Shown here piece by piece: positions 16,091-58,900 of a stretch of DNA of 64,000 nucleotides. The stretch is taken from NCBI GenBank assembly GCA_944349535.1, contig CALVNA010000001.1:21325-85324 (forward strand), given 5' to 3'. The notes below the pieces were generated by a model. The model saw nothing but the letters and a program-made list of their open reading frames with translations. It made no database searches and was not told the origin of the DNA. The position numbers and the translations under genes are program-made. The stretch comes from an uncultured Clostridia bacterium. Lineage in GTDB: Bacteria; Bacillota; Clostridia; Christensenellales; UBA1242. Numbering within the stretch: the first letter of the stretch is position 1; the number at the start of each line of letters is the position of its first letter.

Positions 16091-18367
16091 TTAAAAAATT
16101 TTTACCACCAAACAAGTCATATCATCGACTGCGTAGCCATTGTTGTTTGCAAGAGCTTTGTCAACCACGCTTTGAGCAAACTCTTGTGGGTTTGTTGTTT
16201 TGATTGTCAGCAAAAAATCTCGATAGTCATTATCGCTGCCAAACGAGTCATTGACACCATCGCTTGAAAGCACAATGAAATCTTTTTCAGAAAGCACAAC
16301 TTTTTTGACCAAAGGTTTTGCTTCTTGAATCACTCCAATAGGCAAAGCTCCACTTTCAAGCACCTGGCAACCGTCTTCGCTTCTGACAAATGAAGCTGTG
16401 GCGCCCATCTTTACAAAATCTGCAATGCCGCTTTTAAGATCGACCACGCAAATATCAATGGTTGAAAACATTTCATCTTTTTCAAGGTTGAGAAGTTTGT
16501 TGACTGAAGACAAAATGATTTCGTTGTCAAAGCCTGCCTTGTAAAAATTTTCAACAAGACCTATGGCCGTTTCTGACTTTTCTTTCGCCTGCTCTCCACT
16601 GCCCATGCCGTCGCAGATGGCAAACATAAATTTGTCGCCGTCAAGCCTTTCAATGCTATGACAATCGCCTGACTGAGCTGAGCCCGATTTGTTTTGCTGA
16701 GCAATGCCAAAAATGCAGTCGTATCTTGGAGCCGTTTTTAAATTGACAGTTGTGAGCCCTGCTTTTGTCGATGGATAGGTCTCATAAATTGCCATATTGT
16801 TGCCGCAGACTTTTGAAACCACCGATTGAAGCTTTGTTTTGATCACATCTTCGTCTCTTACAACCAGTGATGCAATCATCGTTCTTGCGTTTTTGTCATA
16901 CACCACCGCATCAGCACAAGCAATATTGTTGAAGGCTAGCTCATCAATCAATTCTGTTTCTTTGTGATTGTCAAAAGTCAGAATTGGCTCAACCTCTTTT
17001 GACAGATCTTTCATAAGGCCAGCAACTCCTGCAAGTTGATCAGAAATCAACAGTTTGCTGGTGTCAACATTGCCCACCAGCTGACTGTATGATTTATATT
17101 GACTCGTCAAGGTGTTTATTTGGCTGATAAGCATATTGGCCTTGCCACAACGAGAGGTCAAATAGCTTGGCAAATCCAGTATTGTTATGCGACCTTTTTC
17201 AAGAGCTATTGTGACCAATTCTTCAAAAACCTGTTTTGTGTCATTTGAAAAAGTGCGATGACAATGTTTTTCTTCTGGACAATTTTTGCAAATTGTCGAG
17301 CGCAATTCATTATACAGCATTTCTTTGACTTGCTCTGGGCTAAGCTCTGACTTAATCAGCTTTTTAAAAACACTGTTCATCTCAAAAAACACTTCTGAAA
17401 GATTGTCAAGTCTGCGATGAAGCATTTCTCGGTTTCTGTTGATCAGATTTTTCACAGCAACTTTTTGACCGGACGTATTAAACAGTGCGCCAATTTCTTG
17501 ATACCACTTTGATGGAATAGCATAAAAAACAAGGCAAGAAATCAAAACTGGTAAAATTTCAATAATGCCAAAGGTGTAGTATAGCCTAAAATAAAATCCG
17601 CAAATCAGTTCTGCAGCAACAAGTCCAATCACTGAAAAGATGCGATTTTTGGTGGTGAAGATGCTGGCAAACAATGACCACAGCATAAGTGGAGCGAAAT
17701 ATATTGGATTGTTTGAAGAAAGCATACTGCCAAAAGCAATCAGTCCAGCCACAAGCAAGCCAGACCGTGAAGAGCTGGTATAAATAAAGGCAAGAATCAA
17801 AAAACTTGCAAACAACTTCAAGAAAGAAAAAGAAGAAAGGTTGAAATTGTTTAGCCCTGCCGAAAACGCAACAAGAAGAATGCAGGCACAAACCATTTCA
17901 AAATTTGAAAACTTGAAGGCTGTTCCCCGAATGAGCAAAGGCTCAAAAATTGTGATGGCGCTGTAACAAAAAGCAATCGCTGTAAGAAGGTTTATTACAA
18001 TCAAAATTGGGTTGACCCCGCCAAGCGCCTGAAAACAAATGCTTGCCGTTTGACTGACCGCCAGGCACAAAAAAAGCTCCCATTTTTTCATTCCTTTTTT
18101 ACACAAAACATGCACGTAATAAGGCAGCACGAGGGCAAAAATTGTTACAAGAGTGCAAATTGCGTTTTGAAGCGTAAACTGATTGACAAGAGCTGAAATA
18201 ATGTACGCTGGCGACAAAAGCCAAACTTTTTGATTTGCCCAGGCAAGAGCAAAAAGCATAGCAAACGAAAACGGATAAATAAGTCCAGCAATTGACGCAA
18301 GATTTAAAACATAAAATAAAATTATGTAAGCAAGAAATTGAGCAAAAAAGAAAAGCTTTGTTTTCAT
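16091..18367 (-). CDS. spoIIE: Stage II sporulation protein E (membrane PP2C phosphatase)
   Basis: About 10 N-terminal TM segments plus a C-terminal PP2C domain (FAICDGMGSG..., ...VLSSDGVNDSF..., ...DDMTCLVVKI). ATG 18367 is preceded by GGAG. Confidence 0.85.
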   Translation of the reverse strand: MKTKLFFFAQFLAYIILFYVLNLASIAGLIYPFSFAMLFALAWANQKVWLLSPAYIISALVNQFTLQNAICTLVTIFALVLPYYVHVLCKKGMKKWELFLCLAVSQTASICFQALGGVNPILIVINLLTAIAFCYSAITIFEPLLIRGTAFKFSNFEMVCACILLVAFSAGLNNFNLSSFSFLKLFASFLILAFIYTSSSRSGLLVAGLIAFGSMLSSNNPIYFAPLMLWSLFASIFTTKNRIFSVIGLVAAELICGFYFRLYYTFGIIEILPVLISCLVFYAIPSKWYQEIGALFNTSGQKVAVKNLINRNREMLHRRLDNLSEVFFEMNSVFKKLIKSELSPEQVKEMLYNELRSTICKNCPEEKHCHRTFSNDTKQVFEELVTIALEKGRITILDLPSYLTSRCGKANMLISQINTLTSQYKSYSQLVGNVDTSKLLISDQLAGVAGLMKDLSKEVEPILTFDNHKETELIDELAFNNIACADAVVYDKNARTMIASLVVRDEDVIKTKLQSVVSKVCGNNMAIYETYPSTKAGLTTVNLKTAPRYDCIFGIAQQNKSGSAQSGDCHSIERLDGDKFMFAICDGMGSGEQAKEKSETAIGLVENFYKAGFDNEIILSSVNKLLNLEKDEMFSTIDICVVDLKSGIADFVKMGATASFVRSEDGCQVLESGALPIGVIQEAKPLVKKVVLSEKDFIVLSSDGVNDSFGSDNDYRDFLLTIKTTNPQEFAQSVVDKALANNNGYAVDDMTCLVVKIF

Positions 18368-18400
18368 AAAATCTCCATGCTTCAATTATAAAAAACTGTT

Positions 18401-18436
18401 TAAAAAAGACATAGTCGATTGCTGTCAGACTATGTC
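18401..18436 (-). terminator. Intrinsic terminator after the guanylate-kinase-like gene
   Basis: GACATAGTC-N11-GACTATGTC inverted repeat followed by a T-run on the minus strand. Confidence 0.55.
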
Positions 18437-18454
18437 GAAGTTTGCAGAAAATGG

Positions 18455-19165: not shown

Positions 19166-19855
19166 TCACATATCAAAAAAATTGATTATGCCATAGAGCA
19201 GGCTGTAACAAAAACTTTTTCGATACTGCTCTGTTTGCAAAAGTTTTTCTTCTTCTGGGTTTGACAAAAAACCGCATTCAACAAGACAGGCGGGAATTTC
19301 TGAATAATTGAGCACGAAATAGTCGCCAACACTGACGCAATCTCTTGCGTTTTCAAAACTTTGGCTTAGCGAGGTTTGAACGCTTTTTGCAAGTTCAAAA
19401 CCCAGCCCTGAACCTTTTGCATAAAAAACTTGAGCGCCTGAACTTGAAGGAAGCGGAAAAGCGTTCATGTGAAGACTGATCATAAGGTCGGCGCCTGAAT
19501 TGTTTATGATATTTTTTCGCTTTTCCATCTCGCTTTTCTTTTTATTTGGGGCGCTTTCGTCATATAGTCCATCCATTGTTGATCTTGTAAGCACAACATC
19601 AAACCCAAATTGTTGACAAAGCTCTTTGAGCTCTAAGGCATATTCAAGATTAAGCTTGCTTTCAGTTACGCCTGTGGTTTTGCCAACAGCGCCCCCGTCT
19701 CTTCCGCCGTGCCCTGCATCAATCACAATGGAGTGCTGCGCTCTCGGCGAACTTGTCGCCCTAACTGCAAAACAGACCCCAACACCAAAGCAAAGCAAAA
19801 TTATGCCTGACAAGATAACACACAATGTGCGCTTTTTTACGGTTATAAATTTCAT
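19166..19855 (-). CDS. cwlD: N-acetylmuramoyl-L-alanine amidase, CwlD-like (Amidase_3)
   Basis: N-terminal TM, IVIDAGHGGRDGGAVG, ADLMISLHMNAF, GAQVFY, LVECGFLSNPEE. Length and architecture match germination-specific CwlD. Confidence 0.75.
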   Translation of the reverse strand: MKFITVKKRTLCVILSGIILLCFGVGVCFAVRATSSPRAQHSIVIDAGHGGRDGGAVGKTTGVTESKLNLEYALELKELCQQFGFDVVLTRSTMDGLYDESAPNKKKSEMEKRKNIINNSGADLMISLHMNAFPLPSSSGAQVFYAKGSGLGFELAKSVQTSLSQSFENARDCVSVGDYFVLNYSEIPACLVECGFLSNPEEEKLLQTEQYRKSFCYSLLYGIINFFDM

Positions 19856-20179: not shown

Positions 20180-20431
20180 GTTGAAAAAGAAGTCGGAAAA
20201 TTAGGAAGCTTGCCACGTAAATACAAAAAACCTAATGTCCGAGTAGATTTGTATAATGACAAAAGAGAACTAATTCAACAAAGATGGTATGGAGCAGATT
20301 GTTGGGTTGTTCATAATAGAGACTATAATCATGGCTACCCTCGCCCACATGACCATTATTGGAATTGGAATGCTAACAAAGGTCCTCAAAGAAGCAAAGA
20401 ACATTCTGCAGTAGATGATAATTTTTGTTAA
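20153..20431 (+). CDS. Small His/Trp/Asn-rich protein T1 (92 aa), candidate stand-alone toxin-tip-like domain
   Basis: Complete ORF with RBS GGAGGTG. Paralog of 21054-21350. Shared motifs: MGMCKPSGG, GSL, R[VI]DLYN, QQRWY, NRD, PHDH.W.W, and a C-terminal Cys. Confidence 0.6.
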   Translation: MGMCKPSGGVEKEVGKLGSLPRKYKKPNVRVDLYNDKRELIQQRWYGADCWVVHNRDYNHGYPRPHDHYWNWNANKGPQRSKEHSAVDDNFC

Positions 20432-20441
20432 AGGAGAAAAA

Positions 20442-20900
20442 ATGGAAAAAGAGATTAAAAGAATAGCAAAATGTGATGTTTGCAAGAACAGGATTGAAAC
20501 AGATCAATATGGAAATAGTAATGCCTGCCCGAATTGCGGTTGGATACAATCAGAAGAATCTTATCAACATCCAAACGTTCCTGGTATAAGAAATATTCCA
20601 TCTTTGAATAATGCTATAAAACAATATAACAATGGAAAGTCTGCTACATTAGCAAATTTCAATGATTTTATTGAAACATATAACAATTATGGAGAAGTCG
20701 AGTTTACCTTAAATAACACAAGGTATGGCGTTTTATATGATGATGATAATAAAAAAATAGCATTATTAAATATACAAACAAATGAAAAACAATTATTCAA
20801 TGATATATATGATTTTGAACAAAATGCAAAAATAAATGGAAAACTATTAAAAGGCTTATGGGATAATGTAACTTTAACTGATTTTTTGCAAGAAACTTAA
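20442..20900 (+). CDS. CPCC-like zinc-ribbon protein I1 (152 aa), candidate cognate immunity protein
   Basis: RBS AAAGGAG. CDVC..(14)..CPNCGW followed by P..IPSLNNAIKQY and a C-terminal domain shared with two paralogs. Confidence 0.6.
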   Translation: MEKEIKRIAKCDVCKNRIETDQYGNSNACPNCGWIQSEESYQHPNVPGIRNIPSLNNAIKQYNNGKSATLANFNDFIETYNNYGEVEFTLNNTRYGVLYDDDNKKIALLNIQTNEKQLFNDIYDFEQNAKINGKLLKGLWDNVTLTDFLQET

Positions 20901-21080: not shown

Positions 21081-21350
21081 ATAAAACCACAATTGGGGAA
21101 AATAGGTAGTTTAAAAGCTTATGGAGACCCGAATACAAGAATTGATTTGTATAACATTGAAAATCCAAATGAATTATTACAACAAAGATGGTACGATTCA
21201 AATGGGAGAGCCGAAATGAATAGAGATTGGAAACATTCCAATAAAGGCGAAGAACATAAATTCCCACATGACCATCCATGGGATTGGACTAAAAAGAATC
21301 CAAGGCTAAAATACGATCCAAATAGGGAAATCAATAATCACTATTGTTAA
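21054..21350 (+). CDS. Small His/Trp-rich protein T2 (98 aa), paralog of T1
   Basis: MGMCKPSGGIKPQLGKIGSL...QQRWYDSNGRAEMNRDWKHSNKGEEHKFPHDHPWDW...HYC. Confidence 0.6.
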   Translation: MGMCKPSGGIKPQLGKIGSLKAYGDPNTRIDLYNIENPNELLQQRWYDSNGRAEMNRDWKHSNKGEEHKFPHDHPWDWTKKNPRLKYDPNREINNHYC

Positions 21351-21358
21351 AAGGAGAT

Positions 21359-21829
21359 ATGATGAAAAATAAAAGCATTTACGATGAAATTTTTGACAAA
21401 CCCTGTTCGGTTTGCAAAGAGATGATAAAAAAGGATGTCTATGACCAAGGTGATTGCCCATACTGCAAATGGAAAAACAACTTTTTAGCCGACGAAAATC
21501 CAAATAGAGTCATCTATCCAAACTTAATTTCTCTAAATAAAGCGAAAAAACTTTATAGCGAAGGCAGGCCTTTTGAGCCTAATCTTGATGATTTTGTTGA
21601 AGCATTGTTCTTTTATAGTGAAATGCAATTTGAATATAATGGAACATATTATGCTGTTGAAATTGTAAATGATAAAAATAAAAATCTTATAATTCGTCTT
21701 TATAATTCTAAAACAAAAGAAACAACACTTTTTAACAATGATGAAGATTTCAAAAACAATGCCAAGGTCGATGGTAAACTTTTAAAAGATATTTGGAATG
21801 ACGCTACCGACAAATACTGGTTGCAATAA
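21359..21829 (+). CDS. CPCC-like zinc-ribbon protein I2 (156 aa)
   Basis: RBS AAAGGAG. CSVC..CPYCKW, NLISLNKAKKLY, PNLDDFVEA, and a C-terminal ...DFKNNAKVDGKLLKDIW. Confidence 0.6.
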   Translation: MMKNKSIYDEIFDKPCSVCKEMIKKDVYDQGDCPYCKWKNNFLADENPNRVIYPNLISLNKAKKLYSEGRPFEPNLDDFVEALFFYSEMQFEYNGTYYAVEIVNDKNKNLIIRLYNSKTKETTLFNNDEDFKNNAKVDGKLLKDIWNDATDKYWLQ

Positions 21830-21840
21830 AAAAGGTAAAA

Positions 21841-22296
21841 ATGAAAAATACAAATATATATGATAAAATTTTCGAAAAAAAGTGTGCAGTTTGCGATCAT
21901 AAATATATGGCTGATATCTATGACCAGGGAGAATGCTCAAATTGTGGGTGGTATAATGGCAAAATATACAGCGAGTTTCCTGATAATGTTATATTTTCAA
22001 ACTTAGCCTCTTTAAACAAAGCAAAAAAATTATATAAAGAAAACAAACCCATGAATCCCGATTTAGACGATTTTCTTGAAGCATTTGAACATTATGGCGA
22101 AACAGGATTTGATTATCAGAATATAGGTTTTTCACTATTTAGATATGGCGAAAATGGAATAGAATTTAGTTGGGGTCCCGAGCCATATGGCACAATATAT
22201 TTCAAAGACAAAGAAGATTTTGTTCAAAATGCAAAAATAGGGAATGAATATGTCCGAAATATTTGGGACAAAATTGAAAATCCTTGTTATCTATAA
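21841..22296 (+). CDS. CPCC-like zinc-ribbon protein I3 (151 aa), no partner small gene
   Basis: CAVC..CSNCGW, NLASLNKAKKLY, PDLDDFLEA, ...DFVQNAKIGNEYVRNIW. Confidence 0.6.
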   Translation: MKNTNIYDKIFEKKCAVCDHKYMADIYDQGECSNCGWYNGKIYSEFPDNVIFSNLASLNKAKKLYKENKPMNPDLDDFLEAFEHYGETGFDYQNIGFSLFRYGENGIEFSWGPEPYGTIYFKDKEDFVQNAKIGNEYVRNIWDKIENPCYL

Positions 22297-26222: not shown

Positions 26223-26963
26223 TTAGCCTTCCATAATCATTTTGTCTGCGATCAAAGCAATAAGCTCGCCGTTTGTTGGCTTTTCATTGCTGCTGTAAAT
26301 TTTCAAGCCAAAAAGAGTGTTTATGTTTTCAATCTTCCCCCTGTTCCACGCAACTTCGATTGCATGGCGCATTCCTCTTTCAACCTTTGAGGAACTTGTT
26401 TCAAACTTTTCAGCGATTGTTGGGTAAAGTTTTTTTGTGATAGAACCAATGATTTCAGGCTCTTCAACAGCAAGCTTGACAGCTTCTCTTAAAAATTGAT
26501 ACCCTTTGATGTGTGCAGGAATCCCGATGCTGATAAAAATATTGGAGATTTTTTCATCCAGCTGTTTTTCTTCTTTGCTTTCAACAGGCTTCTCTTCCAA
26601 TATGTTTTCAATGCGCTCAGCCAAATTTTCAGGCAAGATTGGCTTTACCATAAAATAGCTTGCGCCTTCTTTGATGGCTTTTGACACAAACCCGCTGTGA
26701 GAAAGATTTGATATGAATATTATTTTTGGCAGGTTTTCTTTCATCTGTTTTTTAAGTGAAGAAAGAACCATAAAACCATCCATGCCTGACAGCATAATTT
26801 CCATCACCAGCACATCAGGTTTTGACTGCACCACTTCTTTGACAACGGTTTGTCCCACCACGCCGCTGCCGACTAAAGCAAATTTTTGGTTTTCTGAAAA
26901 GTATTGTTCAAGAGTTTTGTCTTCTGAATTGTCTGCTAAGTAAATTTTTATTTTATTTTCCAT
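26223..26963 (-). CDS. spo0A: Sporulation master regulator Spo0A homolog (atypical receiver: Glu at the phospho-acceptor position)
   Basis: C-terminal Spo0A-specific domain: IGIPAHIKGYQFLREAV...SITKKLYPTIAEKF...SKVERGMRHAIEVAWNRG...KPTNGELIALIADK. The receiver has PDVLVMEIMLSGMDG where B. subtilis has PDVLVLDIIMPHLDG. ATG 26963 is preceded by AAAGGAG. Confidence 0.85.
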   Translation of the reverse strand: MENKIKIYLADNSEDKTLEQYFSENQKFALVGSGVVGQTVVKEVVQSKPDVLVMEIMLSGMDGFMVLSSLKKQMKENLPKIIFISNLSHSGFVSKAIKEGASYFMVKPILPENLAERIENILEEKPVESKEEKQLDEKISNIFISIGIPAHIKGYQFLREAVKLAVEEPEIIGSITKKLYPTIAEKFETSSSKVERGMRHAIEVAWNRGKIENINTLFGLKIYSSNEKPTNGELIALIADKMIMEG

Positions 26964-27081
26964 TTTGCACTCCTTTCTCGCTCTTTCAATTGCGACAAAT
27001 AAAAGATAACACAATTTTTTGTAAAAAAAAATCATAACCCCTGCCAGTTTTTGCCGAGTTATGATTATTTTTGTAGAAATT

Positions 27082-27115
27082 TGTCGAAAGCCTTTGCTTT
27101 CAGAAATTTGTCTAA
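27082..27115. promoter_or_regulatory. Candidate Spo0A (0A) boxes upstream of spo0A
   Basis: TGTCGAA at 27082-27088 (perfect 0A-box consensus) and TGTCTAA at 27109-27115, each within a repeated AGAAATTTGTC. Confidence 0.35.
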
Positions 27116-27120
27116 AATTG

Positions 27121-28452
27121 TTACAAACTCTTGCCTATCAGCTGATAGCTGCCGTTGCCTGAAAGTGAAGCTCTGTAAAGATAATAGTTTTCATCAACTT
27201 CTTCTGAATCGGAGCTGTCATCTTCTGTTTGTTCAATTTGAGCAAAGAAATAGATGTATCCATCGCTCAGTCCATATGTGCCTGAAATGATTGAGCTCAT
27301 GCTGACAACTGTTTCAACTTCGCCGCTCAAAACGCTAGCTCTGCTTATTTGAGTTGAAGTTGAATAATAAATCCAACCATTTTGCTCAAACAGCACATCA
27401 AAAGTTGTGTCTGAAGAAATCAAAACTTTGGTTGCACCGCTTAAAGTCTTATACACCAAAGAACCGTTTTCTGTGATAAACGCAAAACCTTCTTCAGTTG
27501 CAATCACATTTGAAATTGAATCGTCTGAGTAAAATCTTCCAGTTGCGTCAAAGTTGTTTGACTGAGTGATGTTTTTTTGATAAACTTCAACATCCGAAAC
27601 GTCTGTATCCAAACTATAGAACACAACATCTCCACATCTGTCAAGCAAAGTCAGTTCTGCAGCTTGTGGATATGAATAATCCGTAATTTGACCATTTGCG
27701 AAATCGACTGCTTTGATTTCTATTTCGCCGTCATCATTTGTTGCTGCGTAAACAACATTTTTTAAAGAAGAATTTTCGTCTGCGATTGCGTAACTTTCAA
27801 CATTTTCAGCCAAAATTGTGTTCTCGCCAAGGCTGTCGCCTATTCGGATAGAAGAAAGTTGATATTCTTCTTCGCTGTTTTGAGCACAAATGACATAGTA
27901 ATAATTTCCATCCGAGCCCTTTTGCACTGTGATCTGAGAATTGTCGTCATAACGAGTTGTGTAAATTTCTTGCAAGCCATCTCCATTAAATTTGACTCTT
28001 AAAAGAGTAACTCTGCTATAGTCGTTTTGCAGCTCATCTGTTCTGTGAGTGTTTGTTGAAGTAAAATATATATAAGAGCCATAAACAAACATATCTTGAT
28101 TTTGATAGCCAACAAAACGGTCAGAAACCTTTTCGCTGCCAAGCGGACTTGAATTGTTTGTGTCAGCCCTATCGTCGTCAAAAGTGAAGGATTGACCCAA
28201 ATTCAATCTTGCAAGATATCCTGTCTGTGAAGCCGCACCATAATCAAATTCTTCTGCCGATGAGTCGCTATAGCCGTTTGCAAAATAAAGATAATCGCCA
28301 ATCTGAGCAATTTGCCCACCAAAATGAACAACTTCTTCAAAATAGTAAGGTTGCCCGTTTTCATCAAAAATATCGCTGACAGTTGCACAACCTGTAAGAA
28401 GCAGTGCCACTGCAAAAATCATTGTAAACAATTTTAAAAATTTCTTTTTCAT
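27121..28452 (-). CDS. Lipoprotein, beta-propeller (DUF5050/TolB-like) repeats
   Basis: Lipobox LLLTGC. Recurring blades of the type [GD]xYxYF... Confidence 0.6.
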   Translation of the reverse strand: MKKKFLKLFTMIFAVALLLTGCATVSDIFDENGQPYYFEEVVHFGGQIAQIGDYLYFANGYSDSSAEEFDYGAASQTGYLARLNLGQSFTFDDDRADTNNSSPLGSEKVSDRFVGYQNQDMFVYGSYIYFTSTNTHRTDELQNDYSRVTLLRVKFNGDGLQEIYTTRYDDNSQITVQKGSDGNYYYVICAQNSEEEYQLSSIRIGDSLGENTILAENVESYAIADENSSLKNVVYAATNDDGEIEIKAVDFANGQITDYSYPQAAELTLLDRCGDVVFYSLDTDVSDVEVYQKNITQSNNFDATGRFYSDDSISNVIATEEGFAFITENGSLVYKTLSGATKVLISSDTTFDVLFEQNGWIYYSTSTQISRASVLSGEVETVVSMSSIISGTYGLSDGYIYFFAQIEQTEDDSSDSEEVDENYYLYRASLSGNGSYQLIGKSL

Positions 28453-30536: not shown

Positions 30537-31880
30537 TTATTTCAAAAGTTCTTCAAGCTTTTTGCATCTTTCTTCGTCCATTTCTGGCACATCTTTCAAG
30601 CGATATGGTATTTTCAAGTCTTGATATTTATGAACGCCAATGGTTTTGTAAGGCAACAATTCAACTTTTTCAACATTCTTGAGCTTTTCGGCAAACTCTT
30701 TGAGTTTCAAAATGTGCTGTTTGTCATCGTTTATGCCTGGCACAATAACTTGCCGCAGCCAAAGTTTGTTGCCGTTTTTTTGCACAGCTTGCAAAAACTG
30801 CTTAAAATATTTTATTGGCTGACCAGTCAATTCAAAATATTCTTTTTCGTCAACCGCCTTGACATCCAAAATCACAAGGTCAACATATTTTAAAATTTCG
30901 TCATAGTCGCCAAACCCCACACCTGCTGTATCTAGTGCTGTATTTATTGCTTTTTGCTTGCATAGTCTTAAACATTCCAGCAAAAATTGCGGCTGCAAAA
31001 GAGGTTCTCCACCAGAAAAGGTTGCTCCGCCGTCCTGCCCATAATAGTTTTTATACCGCTCTATTTTTTTTACAAGCTCTGCTGCTGAAAGTTCTTCGCT
31101 TTGCCCATCCATCGCCCACGTTTCAGGGTTGTGGCAATATTTGCACCTTAAATGACAGCCTTGCAAAAAACTGACAAATCTTATTCCTGGCCCATCAACC
31201 AGCCCCATAGTTTCAATGCTATTTATTTTTCCCAAGATCTCTTTCTGTGTGCAATCAATGACAAGGTCGCAATCAAATTTTTGATCTGTGTTGACATCGT
31301 TTTTAATTCCAACTGTTTTCACCCCTAAATGTTTGCCGAGTGATAATGTGGAAGAAGAATCTTCAAACAAAACAATCTGCTCAGGTGAAAAATTGATAAA
31401 ATGCTTTATTTTTTTCAAAAATTGATCTTTTTTTAAGTTTAATGAAGGCATTGAAAACACTTTGTCAAAAAATTTGTAAATTTTTTTGCTTTTCAAAACC
31501 TCTGTTATTGTGTTTTCATCTTGATTTGAAGCTATAAAATAATGAGCGTTTGGAAAAGCTTTTGTGATTGAAAAGAAATAGTCAAAGATTTTGACGTCTT
31601 TTTTCTTTAGCATGGTAAGAGAATATTTTTGCTTGTCTGCCATTGCTTTTTGTTTGTCAATATTGCCACAAGCGGAAATCTCTTCAAAAATATCAACATC
31701 CCTTTTCCCGATAAACCTTTTAAAATCTTCTTTTGTAAAAATCTTGTCTGGAAAAAGCTCTTCAATCACTTTTTTGTGTGAAAGAAAATGACAGGGCTCA
31801 CTGTTAAGCAAAGTCCCGTCAAAATCAAATACAAAAACATTTCTTTGCCAAGAATTGATCTCTTGAAGAAATTGATCCAT
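30537..31880 (-). CDS. pflA: HAD-hydrolase domain fused to pyruvate formate-lyase activating enzyme
   Basis: N-terminal ~210 aa has HAD motifs: FDFDGTL, IASNQ, FEDS. The C-terminus has GPGIRFVSFLQGCHLRCKYCHNPETW and GGEPLLQ. The start overlaps the pflB stop (TAATG). Confidence 0.85.
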   Translation of the reverse strand: MDQFLQEINSWQRNVFVFDFDGTLLNSEPCHFLSHKKVIEELFPDKIFTKEDFKRFIGKRDVDIFEEISACGNIDKQKAMADKQKYSLTMLKKKDVKIFDYFFSITKAFPNAHYFIASNQDENTITEVLKSKKIYKFFDKVFSMPSLNLKKDQFLKKIKHFINFSPEQIVLFEDSSSTLSLGKHLGVKTVGIKNDVNTDQKFDCDLVIDCTQKEILGKINSIETMGLVDGPGIRFVSFLQGCHLRCKYCHNPETWAMDGQSEELSAAELVKKIERYKNYYGQDGGATFSGGEPLLQPQFLLECLRLCKQKAINTALDTAGVGFGDYDEILKYVDLVILDVKAVDEKEYFELTGQPIKYFKQFLQAVQKNGNKLWLRQVIVPGINDDKQHILKLKEFAEKLKNVEKVELLPYKTIGVHKYQDLKIPYRLKDVPEMDEERCKKLEELLK

Positions 31881-38093: not shown

Positions 38094-39449
38094 ATGCAAG
38101 ACTTAACTTCGCTTTGGCAAGCTGTGCTTGACAAACTTGAACTGAACGTTTCAAATGTTTCTTTTATCATGTGGTTTAAACCGCTGAAAGTTTTAGATTA
38201 TTCAGAAGAAAACAAAAAATTGATTATTTCCACAAATTCTTCTTCTGCAAAAAATCAGATTATGAGAAACTATTTTGAAAAGCTTTCGTCTGCAATCAAA
38301 GATATTTTTGGTCAAAACATTGACATTGAAATTCTAGACCCAAATGAAGAAATTGAATTTATCAAATTGCATGGTGAAAAAACAGTTCAGAAAGAAGTTG
38401 AAGTTGCAAAAAATCCTTTCAATTCAAAATATACTTTTGATAATTTTGTAGTTGGAAAAAGCAATCAGTTTGTTTATGCCGCAGCAAGAGCGGTGGCTGA
38501 GCACCCTGGCGAAAAATTTAACCCTCTGTTTATTTACGGTGGTGTTGGACTTGGAAAAACTCACCTTTTGCACGCTATAGGCAATTATATACACGAATTC
38601 AACCCAAATCTTAAAGTTATGTATGTAACTTGTGAGCAGTTTGCAAACGATTATATTGAAAGTTTGGGTTCAAACACTAAAAACAAAGCTATTCTTGAAT
38701 TTAGAACAAAATATCGAAATCTTGATGTGTTAATGGTTGACGACATTCAATTTATTTCAAAGAAAACTTCCACTCAGGAAGAATTTTTCCACACCTTCAA
38801 TGAACTTTTTCAGAATAACAAACAGATTATAATTTCTTCAGACCGTCCACCAAAAGATATTGAAACTTTGGCTGACAGATTGCGATCACGATTTACTTGT
38901 GGTTTAATTCAAGACATTCAAACTCCAGATCTTGAAACAAGAATTGCAATTTTAAGAAAAAAGTGTCAACTTGAAAAATACGTTATTGATGATGATGTGA
39001 TCGATTTTATTGCAGAAAAAATAAACACCAATATCAGAGAACTTGAAGGTATGCTTTCAAAAGTATATTTCTTGGCAACCTTGATTGGAAAACGTTCAGC
39101 AACCATGGATGAAGCGCGAGAAGCTTTCAACGGTCAGATTGAAGAAGAAAAAAATGAAGGTTTAAACCCCGACCAAATCATTTCAACAGTTTGTCAATAT
39201 TTTGACATTACAAAAGAAGATATTGTTGGAAAAAAGAAAAGCAAAGATGTTGTTGAACCACGAATGATTGCAATTTATTTGATAAGTGAAATCCTTGAAA
39301 TACCTCTTGTTTCAATCGGAAAAATATTTGGCGGACGAGATCACACAACAATCATGCACTCTCGTGATAAAATTTCTGACCAACTCAAAACTTCACACAA
39401 AATTCAATCCTTTGTCAGCGAAATCAAAAAGATGTTGACAAGTGGATAA
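38094..39449 (+). CDS. dnaA: Chromosomal replication initiator DnaA
   Basis: Walker A GGVGLGKTHL, box VII SDRPP, and a C-terminal DNA-binding domain ...GGRDHTTIMHS... Confidence 0.95.
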   Translation: MQDLTSLWQAVLDKLELNVSNVSFIMWFKPLKVLDYSEENKKLIISTNSSSAKNQIMRNYFEKLSSAIKDIFGQNIDIEILDPNEEIEFIKLHGEKTVQKEVEVAKNPFNSKYTFDNFVVGKSNQFVYAAARAVAEHPGEKFNPLFIYGGVGLGKTHLLHAIGNYIHEFNPNLKVMYVTCEQFANDYIESLGSNTKNKAILEFRTKYRNLDVLMVDDIQFISKKTSTQEEFFHTFNELFQNNKQIIISSDRPPKDIETLADRLRSRFTCGLIQDIQTPDLETRIAILRKKCQLEKYVIDDDVIDFIAEKINTNIRELEGMLSKVYFLATLIGKRSATMDEAREAFNGQIEEEKNEGLNPDQIISTVCQYFDITKEDIVGKKKSKDVVEPRMIAIYLISEILEIPLVSIGKIFGGRDHTTIMHSRDKISDQLKTSHKIQSFVSEIKKMLTSG

Positions 39450-39732
39450 CATGAAAAATTGTTCCACAACTTGTCCACAATTCGTTTTTCAAAATAAAGA
39501 AAATTTTTAAGCAATTTATACAATAAAAACACAATATATAGTGAAACAAAAAAGTTATCCACATTTATACATTCACTATTAAAATTATTATTATTTTATC
39601 AAATAAAAAAATAAGTTATCTTAAAAATCTGCCCAAAAACAAAGGCGAAAAAATATTTTAAAAAATAGCCAAAAATGTTGATAAAAATTTTAATTTATGA
39701 TAAAATTGTTTTTGTAAGAAGGAGATGTTTTT
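39441..39732. other. oriC-like dnaA-dnaN intergenic region (DnaA boxes + AT-rich unwinding region)
   Basis: AGTGGATAA at 39441-39449 (8/9), TGTTCCACA at 39460-39468 (7/9), TTGTCCACA at 39471-39479 (8/9), and TTATCCACA at 39555-39563 (9/9). These are followed by ~150 bp of almost pure A/T. Confidence 0.7.
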
Positions 39733-40833
39733 ATGTTAGTAAATTGTCAAGGGCTTGACCTTTCTGAAGCTTTTTTAAGAGTTAGCAAAGCTATTTCAAA
39801 CAAAATCACAAATCCAATTTTGGAAGGAATAAAGATTGTTGCTGAAGACGGAACTTTGACTATGAGTGCCACAGACAGCGAGCTTTAAATTGAAAAAAAA
39901 ATCAAAGCAGATGTGAAAATTGAAGGTGAAACAGTTGTTCCAGGGCGTTTTATCACAGAATTTGTTAAAAAACTCACAAATTCTGAAATTGAACTTTCTT
40001 TAAACGAAAAAAATCAACTTGTTATAAAATACGAAGATAGCCAAAGTATGATTCAATGTTATAACCCTATCGAGTATCCTGGTTTTAAAAAAATAGAAAC
40101 AAATCAATATTTTGGAATAACAAAAAAGGATTTTAAAACTTGTGTAAACAAATCGATTTTTGCAGTTGCAACAGATGATTCAAGACCAATTCTTAAAGGT
40201 GTGCTTTTTGATATCGACAAGAATGAACTCAGCACAGTAGCTCTTGATGGATACAGACTTGCAAGAGTAAAAAAGAACATTGTTTCAAACATCAAAAAGT
40301 CAATAGTTGTGCCAGCAAGAAGTTTGAGTGAAATTTCAAAACTGATTGATGATAGCGATGAAATGATAAATATTTATATTGACACCTACACTATCATGAT
40401 TGATCTTGGTGATACAAAAGTTACCTCAAGACTTTTGGAAGGAGATTATATAAATTACAAACAAATAATTCCAATGAATTATGAAACTTTTGTTGTGATA
40501 AACAAAGAACAATTTGAAGAAGCTCTTGAAAGAGCAACACTTCTTTCAAAAACGTCTCAAAACAACTTTGTGAAATTTGATATCAAAGAAAATAATATTT
40601 GCATAACATCAAACAGTGACCTTGGAAATATCAAAGAAAACATACCAGCAAATGTTTCAGGAAAAGATTTGGTAATTTCGTTTAATCCAAGATATTTTCT
40701 TGAAAGTTTGAGAGTTAACACAAACGAATTTGTAAAAATTTGTTTCAATCAACCTTCATCACCTTGCGTGATTGTTCCAACAGAAGAAGATGAATTTTTG
40801 TATCTCATCTTGCCAGTTAGAGTGATTGGTTAA
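39733..40833 (+). CDS. dnaN: DNA polymerase III beta sliding clamp, interrupted by in-frame TAA at 39886-39888 (codon 52)
   Basis: RBS AAGGAG then ATG 39733, reading MLVNCQGLDLSEAFLRVSKAISNKITNPILEGIKIVAEDGTLTMSATDSEL*IEKKIKADVKIEGE... in a single frame. The track only lists the 3' part from GTG 39913. Confidence 0.85.
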
Positions 40834-46349: not shown

Positions 46350-46655
46350 CTATACAGCTGTATTTTCTTTATCAATCAATTTTTTAACTTTGTTGTATTT
46401 GTCAATTGTCTCTAACAAATAGCGTTCTCTGCCAATTGCATCCAATTTCATAAGTTTGTTCTCATCCATCAAAAACTTCATAGGACTAAGGCTGTAATCA
46501 TCGCTTTGCAGCAGCGTTTTGACTTTATCGTAAAAATCCTTATCATTTTCCGAAACGATTTTAACGGTTTTGATTGTTTGTGCTTCCTTATTGTTTTTGT
46601 TTATCAAGCGATTTTTGGCTTTAAGTGCCAACGCTTTCAATAAATCTGATTTCAT
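46350..46655 (-). CDS. Hypothetical protein (101 aa)
   Basis: RBS AAAAGGAGAG. No recognisable motif. Confidence 0.45.
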   Translation of the reverse strand: MKSDLLKALALKAKNRLINKNNKEAQTIKTVKIVSENDKDFYDKVKTLLQSDDYSLSPMKFLMDENKLMKLDAIGRERYLLETIDKYNKVKKLIDKENTAV

Positions 46656-46880
46656 ATTTCTCTCCTTTTTTATTACGGTTTTATTTTACAATATATGAGC
46701 ATATTTTCCTAAGAGATTTTTGGCGCAAAAAGATTATTTGTGTCGAAATCTGTTGATAAACAAAAAGTATTTATTTATTAAAAAAACTCCTTTATTTTTA
46801 AATACAACAAAAACGGCATTATTTCGACAATAAAAAGCATAAAATTAGTTGTTTTATATTTGTTTTATGTAATTATAATA

Positions 46881-47017
46881 TAACTATGTGATGTTAAAAT
46901 TTTACTATCATAAAATTTTAATAAATTCTTACGAATTTGTGCGTTTCACGCACTCTTCACATAATTTGTATAAACATCAGCCTCACTCTTGCAAGCAAGT
47001 TCGGCTTCCGATAATAT
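46881..47017. other. Conserved ~137-nt intergenic element, copy B
   Basis: See copy A (24770-24907). The shared core is CTCACTCTT[AG]CAAGCAAGTT. Confidence 0.5.
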
Positions 47018-47167
47018 AAACTAAAAAATTTTAACAAAAAAATAAAAACTTTTCTGCAAAGAAAAGCTTTTTGAAAAATTTTAAAAATAAACACAGCGAT
47101 TATTTTGAAAGGATTTTGCTGACAATAAAGCGATTGCAAGGATTTTTAAAAATTTGTGTTCTAGAAA

Positions 47168-47195
47168 ATAAAAAAACACAGCATTTCTGCTGTGT
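47168..47195 (-). terminator. Intrinsic terminator after rubrerythrin
   Basis: ACACAGCA-GAAA-TGCTGTGT followed by a T-run on the minus strand. Confidence 0.7.
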
Positions 47196-47204
47196 TAATT
47201 TCAA

Positions 47205-52919: not shown

Positions 52920-52978
52920 ATATGTATTAAAACTTAAGAAAAAAAACAAAATAGAAATAAGCTGAGAAGGAGAAGATC

Positions 52979-55900
52979 ATGTCGTTAAAATCTTTGAAAA
53001 AAATTTCATTTGTTGCTTTGATTATTTTAAGTTTGGGGGCGGTGTTTTTGCTGACTTCCATTTTTAATCTTTCTGCCAAGGCTGGTGGCGACGAAAACCT
53101 GCTTGAGCAGAGCTCGCAAGAAAGCGGCTCATGGGTTGACAACGTTCTCAACGCGGCAAGTATAACCGAAGAGACTCATTACGGTGTCAATTGCATGGTG
53201 ATTGACTCTGCAGAGGATCTTGCTATGGTTGCCTATATGGTCGGACGGGGCTCTGACACCAATTACATAAACGGCAATTTCTATCTTGCCCAAGACATTG
53301 ATCTTGCAGGAAAGATATGGACACCTATCGGAACGACGGCAACTCCTTTCAACGGCAACTTTTTTGGTAATGGCCATACAATTTCAAACATAACTATCGC
53401 ACAAGCATCACAATACACAAGCAGTGATGTTGGTTTGTTTGGTGCGGTGACAGGTTCCATCGCGGACTTAAAGGTTGATGGTAACTTCTCAGTGTCAGCA
53501 GCTGTTGATAACACTTATGATATTGGAGTTCTTGTTGGAGATCTTCAAGGCAATGGTCAAGTTGTCAACTGCATGGATCAAACTCAAACCTTGGGTGCGG
53601 CAACCGAATATTTGTCAATTGCTGCAACTGCAAGCTCTACAAAAGTGATTTATCCGTCAAGCTTGGACGGCATCACTCCATTATTTGAAGAAACGACTGT
53701 TGAAAATATGCAAACTGCATTGTCTTTTGCAGGAGATGCGCAGGTTGGTTATTCAACCTACTTCAACACTGGCGTAACTTTGGACTCTTCTGAAGTTGAA
53801 GGTGTTGGTGCTGGTTTTTATTCCAATGGATTCTATGCTTTGGGAAGCGCCGCAGAATCTCAACAAGTTCGCGCGGCATTCAGCCAAGTGTCAGAAGATG
53901 GATATTCAAATGTTTTAAATGTAACATTTACTGACTTCAGTTCGGAAAATCAAGAGGGTCAAGAGGATGCCAAAACTATTCCTTTATACACAGATCAGCT
54001 TCCGGTGCTGCGTGAAAATGCGAAAGGAAATCAAGTTTATGCTTTAAGATCAGGGTATAAAGCAACAATCGGCACTCCAACACTTTCAAGCGCCGGCATT
54101 GTAACTCTTGCTTGGGAATCAGAACAAATAAGCATCACCTATGATTATGGCTATGGCGGCAGGAAAGCAATTTTTAAGGTTGGATATGACACTCCGTGGA
54201 ATACAATCATTGCAAACAACCCAATTGAAAGGCTGGGGTTTACAAATCAAGCAAGTGTGGAAGCTTATAAACTTTATTCAGATGAAAAGAAAGAGCAACC
54301 TTTAAACACGACAACTCCAGAAACTTATTCTACATATTACGCAACTAATGGCAACACGGTTTATGTGAGTTGGAAAAATGCAAAAAGCAATTTGACAGGC
54401 TCTTTATATTTTGGTGCGGATCAAAATGAAGGCGGAATTTTTGACAACGCAAACGCAAACAGTGCTGTTTCAAACTTTCAAATTTCAGGGGCTACAGCTT
54501 CAAACAGCACTTCAGGAAACAGCTCTAGTTTGTCTGACATGACTGCTGGGCAAGATGTTGTCATTACTTTCAACTTAAATGCGGGTTATGTTTTCCAAGC
54601 TGCAGGCGTGGGAACAAACCTTACAGAACGCTCTGGCTGGGATCAAGTTTCAACTGTAACAACATTGGCTGGCGGAGCTTACACATACTATCCAAATGAA
54701 ACAGGCTTGGATAGCAACTATGTGGTTGCAACAGGTGGATATTTTGATTCTTACACACCAATTTCAATCGCTGTTTCAAATCAAGATAATGCTTACACAA
54801 TCACCATAAGCAACATTGTTGACCTTGGCGGCGAAATTGTGCTGTTGTTTGGCAGAGAAGAAGAAACGATTTCAATTGAAGGCACAGGGCTTGACCATGT
54901 TTCAAATGCTCAACTCACTTTGACAGGAGAGTCTTCTCAAACCACATTGGATTGGGACGCCAAGACAATCACAACCAAAATTGGCGAAGGTTTCAACTTG
55001 GCGATTTCATCAAGTGGTGAATACTACATTCTTTCTCATACAGCAGAAGGCTTTGAAAGTGTTATTTCAGATTCTGCAGCAACAAATGTTGGGGGAAGAG
55101 ACTATTATCAGCAAACAACTTTTGAAGTTTCAAATTTTACGCCAGACATCAACACTCAAGAATTTACTATTCATATTGATGTAAGTATGCTGCTTACATA
55201 TATTACAGTTCAAATTGGAGAAAACGGAACTTTCTATCAAAACAATTCTGTTCCACATAATAAGCAAGTTGCTCTTTCAGTAACTTCTGGGCAAACAGTC
55301 AATGAAAGCGTTTTAAGCAAAGGCACTTTCCAAGTTTCAATGACAAGCGAGACGGTGATTTCATTTGCTCAAAACGGATTCTTCACAATAGCTTCTGTTT
55401 CAGGAGCTGATGCCGAACTTTTAAATGGAAGTATCACTCAAATTTTCTCAACATTCTCGGGCGATCCTAATGCTCCAGCTTACACAATCACTTTCAATCC
55501 AACACAAACTTATTATGATGTGACAATCAATTATACAATTGATGGACAACCTGTTTCTCAAGAGATTGCGCAAAAGTTTGTAAGCTTTGCTGGAAACACA
55601 CAAGACCTTGACTATAACAACTCCGAATCATACACACTGACTCTGGCAGAAGGTGCGGCAACATGGCTTGGATTTAATATTAATATAGTTGGCAGCAACC
55701 TTGGCAGCAACACCTCTGGCTATCAAGCGTCAGTTGTTGGCAGCAGCAGCACAGGGGTTGTCAACGGAGTATTCAGCGGCGGAAGTTATCAATTCTCTTA
55801 TGCTCCAGGAACCTACAATTCAACTCTCACAATCAATTTGACAAGAAAAGAGATTCAAACTAATTTTACAGGTTTGGTTCTTAACAGCGATAACTCAACA

Positions 55901-58900
55901 ATTCCAAACACAAGCACTATTTATGGATCGTTTACATTAAAATATGATGCAAATGGCAATGGGGCTCTTCAAATTGTAAATGGTGGATTCAGTTCAATTC
56001 AAATTGAAAACGGTTACTATCTGCTAGGTTGGTATCTTTCAAACGGCAGCACAATCAACGCGTTCTCAAACACAGATTTGATTGAAAACGATGATTTTCT
56101 TGATTTTGTGAAGGATGCTGCAGATGACGCAAATGGTGCGGCAACACTTACGGTTACTGTCAACCCTCTCGTTGAAAAAAGAACGGTAAATCTTTCTTAT
56201 GCTCATGGTTTGACCAGCACAGAAGGATTGACTGATGTAACAGAAATTTCAGCGCCAACATATGCTTATGGTGACAGTCCAGTTTCTCTAAACACAGAAA
56301 AATACAAATTGATTGGCTATTCTTTCGCACAATGGAGCGCAGAAAATGGGACAATCAACAACAACACTTTCAGTTTAACCGGAAATGCTTGGAATGAGTT
56401 TTGGGAAAATGATGCTGCAAGTGCAGTTCACAGCTGGATGGCTTTTGCCACGGCGGAAGAGAAGTCAAAAGAAATTGTTTTGACTGCGCAGTTCTCTGCT
56501 TTGCAATATACAGTTTCAGTTGACAATCAAACAACGCTTACAATTTCAATAGGGCAGACAATCACTTTTGAAGCTGCTTCAGACGGCTCTTATGCTGTTT
56601 ACACCAACACAACAACAAATCAGCACGTCAATGGCAGCACTCTTGCAGGATACTCGGCTGTTTCGTTTGAAATTTCAGGAAATCTTGGCGGTGAAGCTTC
56701 ACAAAATGGGCTTACAACATTCACGCTTACTTTGGCAAACATCAGAGCTCTTATTGCAGAGGCAAACTATTATCAAACAGCACAGCAAAACGAACTTTCA
56801 ATTTTGACTGAAAGAACTGCGAATGTTTACAAGTTATACATTCAGGCAAATAAATACTACAAAATTTCTTTGCTTGAAGGAACCACTGCTGAGCAGGGCG
56901 GAACTGACCCAACAGGCACATATGTCAATGTAACTTATGGGCAAAACCCAACCAATCTTTCGCAGGTGGTTGTAACAAGAGATGGTTATGACCCTGCAGG
57001 CTTCACTTTGGCTGGGGAGCCTTTTGAAACAGACCAGCCTTACACCTTGACTCAAAATTCAACTCTCACACCTGTTTTTGAAAGAGATGTTGGCAGCACT
57101 TTTTTCAAAGATAAAATTGTTTTGACTGAAACAGAAGCGTTTAAGGCAACAAACGCGGTAACTCAACAGCAATATCAATTCTATATTGATCCTTCATATT
57201 TTGAAGTTTATGAAGATTTTAATATGATCACAACAAACTATGCCGGCAGAACATTCACAAACGGTGATAGAGAAATTGCGGCTCAGTTCTATCTAACAAG
57301 CAAAGTGCCAAGCGATAGCGTGAGTAGAAATCAAAGCGAGCTTTCTTATCAAGACCTCTTAAATTTCTTGCGCAATGAACAATACGCAAAAACTCTCAAC
57401 CTTTCTTATGTTGTTCAAATTGAAGACAGCTTGACTGGCGATACATATTTGTTGACATATACTGTTCACCAGATCAGTTTTGTTCAAAACGAACTTAAAA
57501 TTTCAGGCGCAGCACTGAAATCTTATTACACTGGAACGGCTGATTATGTTGAAGCACCTTCTTCAACTCTTGGCACAATCATCGGTTCAAGATATGACAT
57601 CAACGGAAATGAAAAAACCGAGCAAGACGCTGTTGGTCAAATGATCGACCAAGTTGTTCAAGATGGCGATTATTCAATAAGTTTGATTGATCCTCAAGCG
57701 AAATACAATGTGGGACAAGGTTACGGTTTTAATTTTGCTTTTGATATTTATGGGGATTTTGAAGAATGGTTTACAAATGTGAAAATTGTTGGACTTGATC
57801 CTACAGTAACGCTCTCAAGCGGAGCTGAAATTGTCAAATCAATTGCAACAATCACATTCGATTCTTCTGTGGGGATTTATGTTGAAAATCTAGCTCAAAC
57901 CATCGCACAAAACGTTTCAAATGCAACTTTCAATGTTGCTGGAAATCCAAGTTACCAGTTTACCTACTCATTTGACAGACTCGGCTTGGTGAATAATGAA
58001 GTGGGCACATACACAGGCAAAAATGATCCTGATCAAGACAAGTTCGTTTTCGTCGTTAAAGGTTTTGCAGTTTATAATGGACTGGAAGAAGTTACAACCA
58101 ATTTCGACTGGGCAATTTCAACATCATCAACTTATCAAGTTGTTGGCGGAGAAGGTTTTAACGGTGCAGAATATCGCTTTGAATCAAGATATTTGACTTC
58201 TTCAAATGGAAGCTTGACGGGTCTTTCAGCAGGCTGGGGACAAGAAGGGTTAGAAAACACTTTCACAATTTCAAATGTAAGTTATAATGACGAAATTGTT
58301 TCTCCAAACAACGGTTCAAGCTTTGCATCTCAATACAATCACATCGTTGGCGGGCAGGTTGTTTTCTCAATCATCGGAAACGGCTCTTACACTTTGGTTG
58401 TTGTGGTCAATGAAGATTTGATCGGACAAAATCCTTTGACATTCAATGTTACAGTCAGCAGCCCATTGACTGAAAAACTTGTGCTTTTCAGCTGGCAAAA
58501 CACAGAAACTGTTGACGAAAGCCTGTTTGGTCAGGCTCTTCCAAATTCAATGACATCTTTTGCATACAGCTCATCAGCTCCAACATCAACTTACGCAGTG
58601 TTCACAGACGCTGCCAAGGTGGATGTTGACTTCAACTTAAAGGAACTATCTTCTGAGACGATTTATGTTTCTTCAAGCGATCCTTATCAGCTTAACGATC
58701 CTTCAGATAGCAGTGGAGAACTTGCATTTGGCGGCTATCAAATTTCTGGCAGCGGCATTGCAACCTCTGATGGCGACGGGATTTACACCATTTCACTTGA
58801 CAGGGCTGGTGAAGCTGCAGCTTTAAAGGCTATGTGGAATTTGACTGAAAACGTTGATATTTCAATTATCGAAGGCAAAGAAACAATAACAATTTCGCCT

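Follow-up and report, generated by a model that had tools for sequence, protein, structure and literature searches.

A Spo0A with a lineage-fixed glutamate at the phospho-acceptor position of its receiver in uncultured gut Clostridia

Phosphorylated Spo0A (Spo0A~P) is the textbook phosphorylation-gated developmental switch, and its threshold-dependent regulon is the accepted basis of the sporulation decision in the Firmicutes. Here we describe a Spo0A encoded in a 64-kb stretch of DNA from an uncultured Clostridia bacterium (contig CALVNA010000001.1; 64,000 nt, referred to below as the window), in which the position of the phosphorylated aspartate is occupied by glutamate. The closest described proteins are the canonical Spo0A proteins of Bacillus subtilis and Geobacillus stearothermophilus (structures 1qmp, 1dz3, 1lq1 and 1fc3), with which the window protein shares its two-domain architecture and receiver fold. 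Over the aligned C-terminal domain it is 54% identical with 1lq1/1fc3, and the first acidic-pocket residue (DD1), the conserved Thr/Ser, the Lys-Pro pair and the switch aromatic are common to both. Sequences of the 0A-box type lie upstream of spo0A itself and of spoIIE here too. In contrast, the canonical acceptor Asp, second acidic-pocket Asp (DD2), Pro at D+4 and Ala at T+1 are replaced by Glu, Asn (variable among its relatives), Ser and Asn respectively; an LSHSGF motif at β4–α4 is new in the clade to which the window protein belongs, and the gene does not lie beside spoIVB.

Aspartate-less receivers and pseudo-receivers are already known as a class, and what appears to be new here is a pseudo-receiver on Spo0A. 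They make up 4–13% of receivers, with Glu as the commonest replacement (reviews, including Maule et al. 2015). ChxR of Chlamydia, which has Glu at the acceptor site, RitR and HP1043 are likewise recognized as receivers by hidden Markov models (HMMs) while lacking catalytic residues, and ChxR dimerizes and binds DNA without phosphorylation (Maule et al. 2015; 2025 pseudo-receiver review). The pattern of the aspartate-less class, in which Glu replaces Asp most often, DD1 and Lys generally persist and DD2 is generally lost, is also that of the window clade, although ChxR, RitR and HP1043 carry OmpR/PhoB-type or other output domains and control unrelated regulons. The identical substitution at the identical site has been engineered in phosphomimics (NtrC D54E and others), and Asp-to-Glu gives phosphorylation-independent activity in several regulators (Maule et al. 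2015). However, the engineered proteins are laboratory point mutants with an otherwise intact pocket, whereas the change in the window is natural and ancient and goes with a remodelled DD2, D+4 and T+1. The plant PRR/TOC1 proteins and fungal Rim15p also display a lineage-wide Asp-to-Glu change in a developmental or timing regulator whose domain is retained under selection, but they are eukaryotic and have other outputs, and the PRRs are controlled by phosphorylation at other sites, degradation and partner binding. In phage-encoded truncated spo0A homologues the Spo0A output is likewise uncoupled from the phosphorelay, but there the receiver has been removed. The Sad67-type deletions of B. subtilis are also receiver-less forms of Spo0A. 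Unlike such forms, the window protein has kept its receiver under strong sequence conservation, which implies that the domain still has a function.

We found no prior description in the literature of a Spo0A with a pseudo-receiver, although this is a weak negative, as most subscription journals were outside the reach of the search. An aspartate-less receiver joined to a Spo0A-type output domain is described in none of the pseudo-receiver papers found; the 2025 review does not mention Spo0A, the 2015 paper on aspartate-less receivers cites Spo0A for a laboratory mutant only, and the preprint by Galperin on sporulation gene sets does not raise an Asp-less Spo0A.

Acceptor site and pocket of the window Spo0A

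The spo0A gene of the window (26223..26963, minus strand) encodes 246 amino acids followed by a stop codon that ends at 26223, as delimited from the open reading frame (ORF) list and the matches to Pfam and TIGR02875. The ORF as listed opens at an ATG at 27035; however, AAGGAG (26970–26975) stands before the ATG at 26963, where all of the homologues begin, so we take 26963 to be the real start. The NCBIfam equivalog profile TIGR02875 (spore_0_A) matched with 231.9 bits, above its cutoff of 200. The Spo0A_C DNA-binding and transcription-activation domain (residues 139–241; 26241..26549, minus strand) was found by Pfam (PF08769) with an E-value of 1.1e-38 over 103 of the 104 profile positions; residues 132–245 aligned to the DNA-binding domains 1lq1 and 1fc3 with E ~1e-37 (HMMER against PDB sequences), an alignment in which the recognition helix VER..RHAIEVAW is kept, and Foldseek gave template modelling (TM) scores of 0.87–0.90 to solved Spo0A domains. 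The N-terminal pseudo-receiver domain (residues 3–122; 26598..26957, minus strand) has a (βα)5 fold by HMMER alignment to 1dz3, 9phz and 5wq0, by its AlphaFold model and by Foldseek. Pfam recognized it as Response_reg (PF00072; 1.9e-14, 54.2 bits, residues 18–119), the AlphaFold model is a regular (βα)5 receiver with a predicted local distance difference test score (pLDDT) of 82, and Foldseek matched it to 5wq0 and 1qmp with TM scores of 0.85–0.88 and a root-mean-square deviation of 1.3–2.2. By these profile and structural matches, the gene is a full-length Spo0A with both of its domains intact.

A preliminary description, made by a model from the nucleotide sequence, had placed a Glu at the acceptor position and an Asn at the second acidic-pocket position, with the conserved Lys retained, and all three assignments hold. 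Residues 5–122 align without a gap to the G. stearothermophilus Spo0A receiver (1dz3/1qmp; HMMER), so that 'dvlvmEimlsgmdgf' of the window protein pairs with 'dilllDiimphldgl' and 'ADN' pairs with 'ADD'. The codon at the acceptor position is GAA (26799..26801, minus strand) and encodes Glu55, the counterpart of Asp56 in Spo0A of B. subtilis; the assignment rests on the PDB alignment, with which the B. subtilis sequence agrees. A register shift that would supply an alternative Asp is ruled out by the gap-free alignment, and the only neighbouring Asp residues, D50 and D62, are those of 'PD' and 'DG', two positions shared with canonical Spo0A. In the AlphaFold model, strand β3 ends exactly at residue 55. 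The first acidic-pocket residue is kept as Asp11 (GAC, 26931–26933), whereas the second, metal-binding one has become Asn12 (AAT, 26928–26930; the pair at 26928..26933, minus strand). The conserved Ser/Thr is Ser85, followed by Asn86 at T+1, where Ala or Gly is normal, within the β4–α4 motif LSHSGFVSK (26679..26711, minus strand); D+4 is Ser59 in place of the usual Pro. From Phe104, the switch aromatic at K-3, to Lys107-Pro108, the pocket Lys and the cis-Pro (26640..26654, minus strand; the codons of the latter two at 26640–26645), the pocket is unaltered.

These landmarks, which were taken from two reviews of receivers and pseudo-receivers (including Maule et al. 2015 and Bourret et al. 2025), were then compared across a clade of 81 members, i.e. 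the window protein and the proteins from 80 loci of species-representative genomes. DD1 is Asp, T is Ser or Thr, K-3 is Phe and K and K+1 are Lys-Pro in every one of the 81. The acceptor is Glu in 79, whereas DD2 is acidic in only five (Asn in 19, Thr in 17, Lys in 17, Ser in 12 and others, including Ala and Gly, in fewer), D+4 is Pro in two, and T+1 is Asn in 66, Ser in eight and His in four and never Ala or Gly. Among 84 Asp-type representatives, for comparison, D+4 is Pro in 54 and T+1 is Ala or Gly in 47 (Ala, Gly or Ser in 61). The protein thus lacks both the phospho-acceptor Asp of Spo0A and the complete acidic pocket (DD + D) with which a canonical receiver binds Mg2+ and accepts a phosphoryl group, having E55 and N12 instead. 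It falls within the aspartate-less receivers as defined by Maule et al. (2015), being detected as a receiver by HMM with the phosphorylatable Asp absent, and within the pseudo-receivers as defined by Bourret et al. (2025; at least one of the five residues DD, D, T and K lost), since D is Glu and DD2 is Asn; it also carries their secondary marks, a D+4 that is not Pro and a T+1 that is neither Ala nor Gly.

Because the acceptor Asp, the DD2 Asp and the β3–α3 Pro are gone and T+1 is bulky, we infer that His-Asp phosphotransfer from kinases or a phosphorelay can no longer activate this Spo0A. That phosphotransfer might still activate it, on to Glu as an acyl phosphate or on to a neighbouring residue, we regard as very improbable indeed. 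Phosphorylation of Glu is possible in principle (Maule et al. 2015), and DD1, Thr/Ser and Lys are all retained; but DD2 is non-acidic in 76 of the 81 members, with a Lys in 17 of them, the lost Pro at D+4 and the bulky T+1 are both associated with lost phosphorylation chemistry, α1 is the most variable part of the domain, and no bacterial phospho-Glu signalling was known to Maule et al. (2015).

The variation within the clade is also unevenly distributed. Entropy reached 2.3 bits in α1 and 1.9 bits in the DD loop, as against 0.1–0.6 bits in the β4–α4 loop, α4 and β5, where the LSHSGFVSK stretch has 0.4–0.6 bits and H89, G91, F92 and K95 are invariant in the motif LSHSGF..K. In two-component systems, α1 is the usual kinase-docking helix and α4–β5–α5 the usual dimerization and output face. 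A variable α1 next to a frozen β4–α4–β5 fits a protein whose phosphodonor partner has been lost while its output function is retained. The same conservation bears on a rather unlikely alternative, in which the pseudo-receiver is not constitutively on but is a regulated switch that takes another input, either a partner protein on the α4–β5–α5 face, which could be an anti-activator or a co-activator, or another modification; the Glu might be methylated, for example, or Ser, Thr or His of the invariant LSHSG loop phosphorylated. The β4–α4 loop, α4 and β5 are far more conserved than the remaining receiver, including the four invariant residues, and the reviews list both partner binding and alternative modifications for pseudo-receivers, the Glu-bearing plant PRRs being phosphorylated elsewhere. 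However, no candidate partner is evident, the conserved neighbours of the gene (a lipoprotein, an Smr-like protein and a radical-SAM enzyme) being without a known link to Spo0A, and α4–β5–α5 is the normal dimerization surface, so that its conservation would be expected under a constitutive dimer too.

Fixation in the clade and recurrence in the Spo0A family

The acceptor Glu is not confined to the window. In the public assembly collection, 35 blocks contain an identical protein, and in four independent assemblies examined at the DNA level codon 55 is GAA, the genes differing from that of the window at 0–7 positions, all of them synonymous. All of the 120 closest database homologues (75–96% identity) have Glu. 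Among the species-representative genomes, in which the relatives were read as short loci around spo0A, the 80 loci (66–94% identity) carry Glu in 78 cases and Asp in two; all 80 come from uncultured Clostridia-type metagenome-assembled genomes (MAGs) of human, mouse, rabbit, deer and ruminant gut. Both Glu codons occur among the 81 clade members (GAA 58, GAG 21), alongside one GAC and one GAT. The ratio of non-synonymous to synonymous substitution rates (dN/dS) in close pairs, by the method of Nei and Gojobori, was 0.02–0.11 for the receiver and 0.00–0.02 for the DNA-binding domain; synonymous sites were near saturation. The low value for the DNA-binding domain bears out the earlier statement that this domain is very well conserved.

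A sequencing or assembly error, or a decaying pseudogene lineage, which had been named beforehand as what would undo the finding, is ruled out by the independent assemblies with GAA, the ~80 species, the use of both Glu codons and a dN/dS far below 1 with both domains intact; nothing was found in its favour. On these comparisons, the acceptor Glu is a lineage-fixed trait under selection. In a neighbour-joining (NJ) tree, drawn without support values, the 81 sequences form one clade in which the two Asp forms are nested, and the sisters of this clade, P0125 and P0126, show the canonical pocket residues (D, DD2 = D, D+4 = P); one member of the P0125 cluster carries the NCBI name 'Faecalibacterium sp.' / 'Eubacteriales bacterium'. 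Of the two nested Asp species, one has Thr and the other Lys at DD2, so that neither carries an acidic residue there. Because DD2 stays non-acidic in both, these apparent reversions to Asp suggest that the acidic side chain at position 55 has a structural role and not that of a catalytic phosphoryl acceptor.

The preliminary description had treated the loss of Asp as an oddity of a single genome, a view that does not survive either the clade or the wider family. In an HMMER scan of 1.84 billion cluster representatives, from which the best 150 Spo0A-like proteins were taken, 123 had an assessable receiver, 95 of them with Asp and 28 without it (E 12, G 6, N 5, S 4, Q 1); a count based on a MAFFT alignment gave 30 of 114 representatives without Asp. 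Because the query was itself a pseudo-receiver and the proteins were ranked by their similarity to it, this non-Asp fraction may be inflated. On the NJ tree, parsimony required up to 32 changes at the acceptor site, which is an upper bound. One representative, P0129, has Asn at the acceptor site and stands for a cluster of 156 members on contigs of up to 424 kb. Its 120 closest relatives, some of which are named 'Candidatus Coproplasma', have Asn in 83 cases and Asp in 37; in all 120, DD2 is non-acidic and D+4 is a residue other than Pro. As the P0129 lineage with its Asn is separate from the Glu clade, at least two large lineages have, by these alignments, independently fixed an Asp-less Spo0A. 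We propose only tentatively, as a view that falls short of an even chance, that entry into sporulation without phosphorylation of a Spo0A Asp is recurrent and common among uncultured gut Clostridia. The same search returned four proteins of another kind (P0122, P0123, P0128 and P0132), of ~390–450 amino acids, that lack a receiver and contain Spo0A_C-like stretches in tandem arrays of three or four.

The spo0A promoter, 0A boxes and genomic context

Upstream of spo0A there are two tandem 0A boxes in a 10-bp register (TTCGACA-aat-TTCTACA; 27072..27088, minus strand), which were found by a search for exact boxes and checked in the sequence. These are unchanged in the window and in loci L001–L007, i.e. 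in the eight closest species, despite the saturation of synonymous sites. In 32 of the 80 species, the 300 nt preceding spo0A contain an exact 0A box, which is ~12 times the background (0.034 per 300 nt); most of these boxes fall between −105 and −145, and almost all of them share one orientation. In the eight closest species, the stretch that leads from the boxes to the start codon hardly varies. Between the two lie a hairpin and a U9 tract (27022..27072, minus strand; RNA fold), which form the intrinsic terminator of the upstream lipoprotein gene; the hairpin has a folding energy of −15.5 kcal/mol (z = −5.4), and those of relatives have −20.4 and −13.6 kcal/mol (z = −7.4 and −6.0). Further downstream, an aligned block (26991..27011, minus strand) is invariant in seven to eight of the eight species (alignment A2) and constitutes a putative promoter/operator of spo0A. 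It comprises TGtTATCTT, which resembles an extended −10 element (27003–27011), and, just downstream of it and next to the likely start site, TGTCGCA (26991–26997), which matches a 0A box at six of seven positions. The hairpin went undetected in a scan with consensus promoters and terminators, which did not yield a convincing sigma-70 promoter either. Taken as sequence, the region has the appearance of an autoregulated spo0A promoter. Since the recognition residues are kept and the boxes are conserved at the gene's own promoter, the C-terminal domain is predicted still to recognize canonical 0A boxes.

Across the window as a whole, the exact 0A box TGTCGAA occurs ten times against 7.4 expected, an enrichment that is not significant, so that we relied on the positional evidence alone; the degenerate TGNCGAA is mildly enriched (44 against 31.7 expected, a count reached in two of 100 shuffles). 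Four of the ten exact sites are intergenic: one ~120 nt upstream of spo0A, one before the spoIIE-like gene and two before a 101-amino-acid ORF. This last ORF (46350–46655, minus strand) has no Pfam or NCBIfam match and follows a 550-nt intergenic region (46656–47204) that holds the two boxes (46741–46747 and 46823–46829), which makes it a candidate for a Spo0A-controlled gene. Its identification as AbrB was dropped, as it is unlike AbrB and matches no Pfam or NCBIfam family.

The preliminary description also held that the organism keeps spoIIE and cwlD, and this can be maintained in part, since both genes give the best full-length matches to these families but score below the NCBIfam equivalog cutoffs. 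The spoIIE-like gene (16091..18367, minus strand) encodes 758 amino acids from an ATG at 18367, with Pfam matches to SpoIIE_N (1.7e-37) and SpoIIE/PP2C (1.8e-27) and a full-length match to TIGR02865 of 396.8 bits, below the cutoff of 490.8. Upstream of it (18385..18439, minus strand), the box search found an exact 0A box TTCGACA (18433–18439) 43 bp upstream of TATAAT (18385–18390). At six related loci (L027, L029, L046, L053, L059 and L060), two same-strand [AT]GACAAAA motifs stand ~40–150 nt upstream of spoIIE, and this pair is possibly a lineage variant of the 0A box. The cwlD-like gene (19166..19855, minus strand) encodes an N-acetylmuramoyl-L-alanine amidase (Pfam Amidase_3, 3.1e-43) whose best NCBIfam match is TIGR02883 (spore_cwlD) with 171.7 bits, below the cutoff of 221.55. 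In the window, both genes lie within 10 kb of spo0A; among the 80 loci, spoIIE is linked to spo0A in six and cwlD is also found in several.

The order YqeY, metallophosphoesterase, 443-amino-acid lipoprotein, spo0A, Smr-like protein and radical-SAM enzyme is kept in most of the 80 loci. No spoIVB is adjacent to spo0A, and its place in model organisms is taken, directly upstream of spo0A, by the predicted lipoprotein in 62 of the 80. No Pfam or NCBIfam family matches the latter (27121–28452, minus strand), in which aromatic motifs of the 'Y-I-Y-F' type recur. That it replaces SpoIVB was considered and dropped, in view of the lack of any Peptidase_S55 or PDZ signal and of the terminator between the lipoprotein gene and spo0A. 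The window covers the region of the replication origin (dnaA, dnaN, parAB, jag, yidC, mnmE/G and rsmG), and spo0A lies ~11 kb from dnaA/dnaN (38094–40833, plus strand). In B. subtilis, spo0A is far from the replication origin. Among the window ORFs scanned, a range that takes in the window only and not the rest of the genome, there was no histidine kinase, Spo0F or Spo0B.

These observations bear on whether the Glu form governs sporulation at all. That it is a paralogue or a repurposed regulator, sporulation having been lost and Spo0A kept for other regulons, or sporulation being served by a second, canonical Spo0A, is in our view distinctly improbable. All of the relatives are uncultured MAGs without a known sporulation phenotype, and some are labelled near Christensenella, the cultured species of which are described as non-spore-forming. 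Spo0A also occurs in some asporogenous genomes, with paralogues in some Clostridiales (Galperin preprint), and both the position of the gene away from spoIVB and the sub-cutoff scores of spoIIE and cwlD could be read in the same way. Set against this, the protein passes the Spo0A equivalog cutoff, there is one copy per species locus with conserved synteny, the full-length spoIIE with its exact 0A box and the cwlD-like gene lie close by and are linked in several relatives, the DNA-binding domain is under extreme constraint, and Spo0A is single-copy in 107 of 118 Spo0A-positive genomes (Galperin preprint).

Several other features of the window stand apart from sporulation. Rfam gave two tRNAs in it and no rRNA. 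An ORF of at least 3679 amino acids (52961–64000, plus strand) runs off the window end and has no Pfam match, and another of at least 1649 amino acids (2–4948, minus strand) runs off the window start, and matches only the Peptidase_M26 N-terminal region and GLUG motifs, which makes a surface protein probable. Three tandem paralogous ORFs of ~150–160 amino acids (20415–20900, 21344–21829 and 21841–22296, plus strand) each match Cys_rich_CPCC weakly. At 30537–31880 (minus strand), directly downstream of a gene for a pyruvate-formate-lyase-like glycyl-radical enzyme, the Pfam matches point to a HAD-type hydrolase domain (residues 15–192) fused to a radical-SAM activase domain (residues 228–392).

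Proposed activation without phosphotransfer and its possible consequences

We consider it reasonably probable, at about 60%, that this is the functional Spo0A of a low-GC gut lineage, that it does not use Asp phosphorylation and that its receiver is a lineage-fixed pseudo-receiver. Such a protein might work as follows. The carboxylate of the Glu would engage the Thr/Lys switch residues (Ser/Thr85 and Lys107, with Phe104) and would hold the receiver in or near the active, dimer-competent state. The amount of Spo0A would then set the decision, by way of the autoregulated and tightly conserved promoter; a partner protein on the conserved α4–β5–α5 face could possibly contribute, and kinase input would have no role.

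Several points weigh against this interpretation. The retained Thr/Ser, Lys and switch aromatic could mean that the pocket is still occupied by something. None of the six distant spoIIE-bearing loci shows the exact TTCGACA in front of that gene, and the Asp-type reference set used in the comparison of conservation is much more divergent than the clade. With paralogues in ~9% of Spo0A-positive genomes (Galperin preprint), a second, canonical spo0A is possible. Lastly, in B. subtilis Spo0A, Asp-to-Glu alone is reportedly insufficient for constitutive activity, according to the passage in which Maule et al. (2015) cite Green et al. (1991). The same report lends some support to the regulated switch described above, and because of it we assign to a purely constitutive phosphomimic only roughly one third of the probability given to the interpretation as a whole. 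The suggestion in the preliminary description that this Spo0A is phosphorylation-independent accordingly stands in so far as canonical Asp phosphorylation has been lost and the loss fixed, whereas a Glu that acts as a phosphomimic and confers constitutive activity is one possible mode among others, control by a partner protein or by another modification being equally possible.

The Glu clade spans, by these alignments, at least 78 related species besides the source organism, and a large and prevalent group of gut Clostridia with a Spo0A unable to accept phosphate would need another route to the decision to sporulate. If these proteins are the sole Spo0A copies of spore-formers, the kinase/phosphorelay paradigm would fail for a sizeable part of the diversity of gut spore-formers, and the trigger would be another mechanism. 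This bears on the host-to-host transmission of gut commensals, on tools in which the presence of spo0A alone is enough to predict sporulation and on how bacterial pseudo-receivers are controlled. For structural work on the active state, the protein would also provide a natural, evolution-tested and putatively 'phosphomimic' Spo0A.

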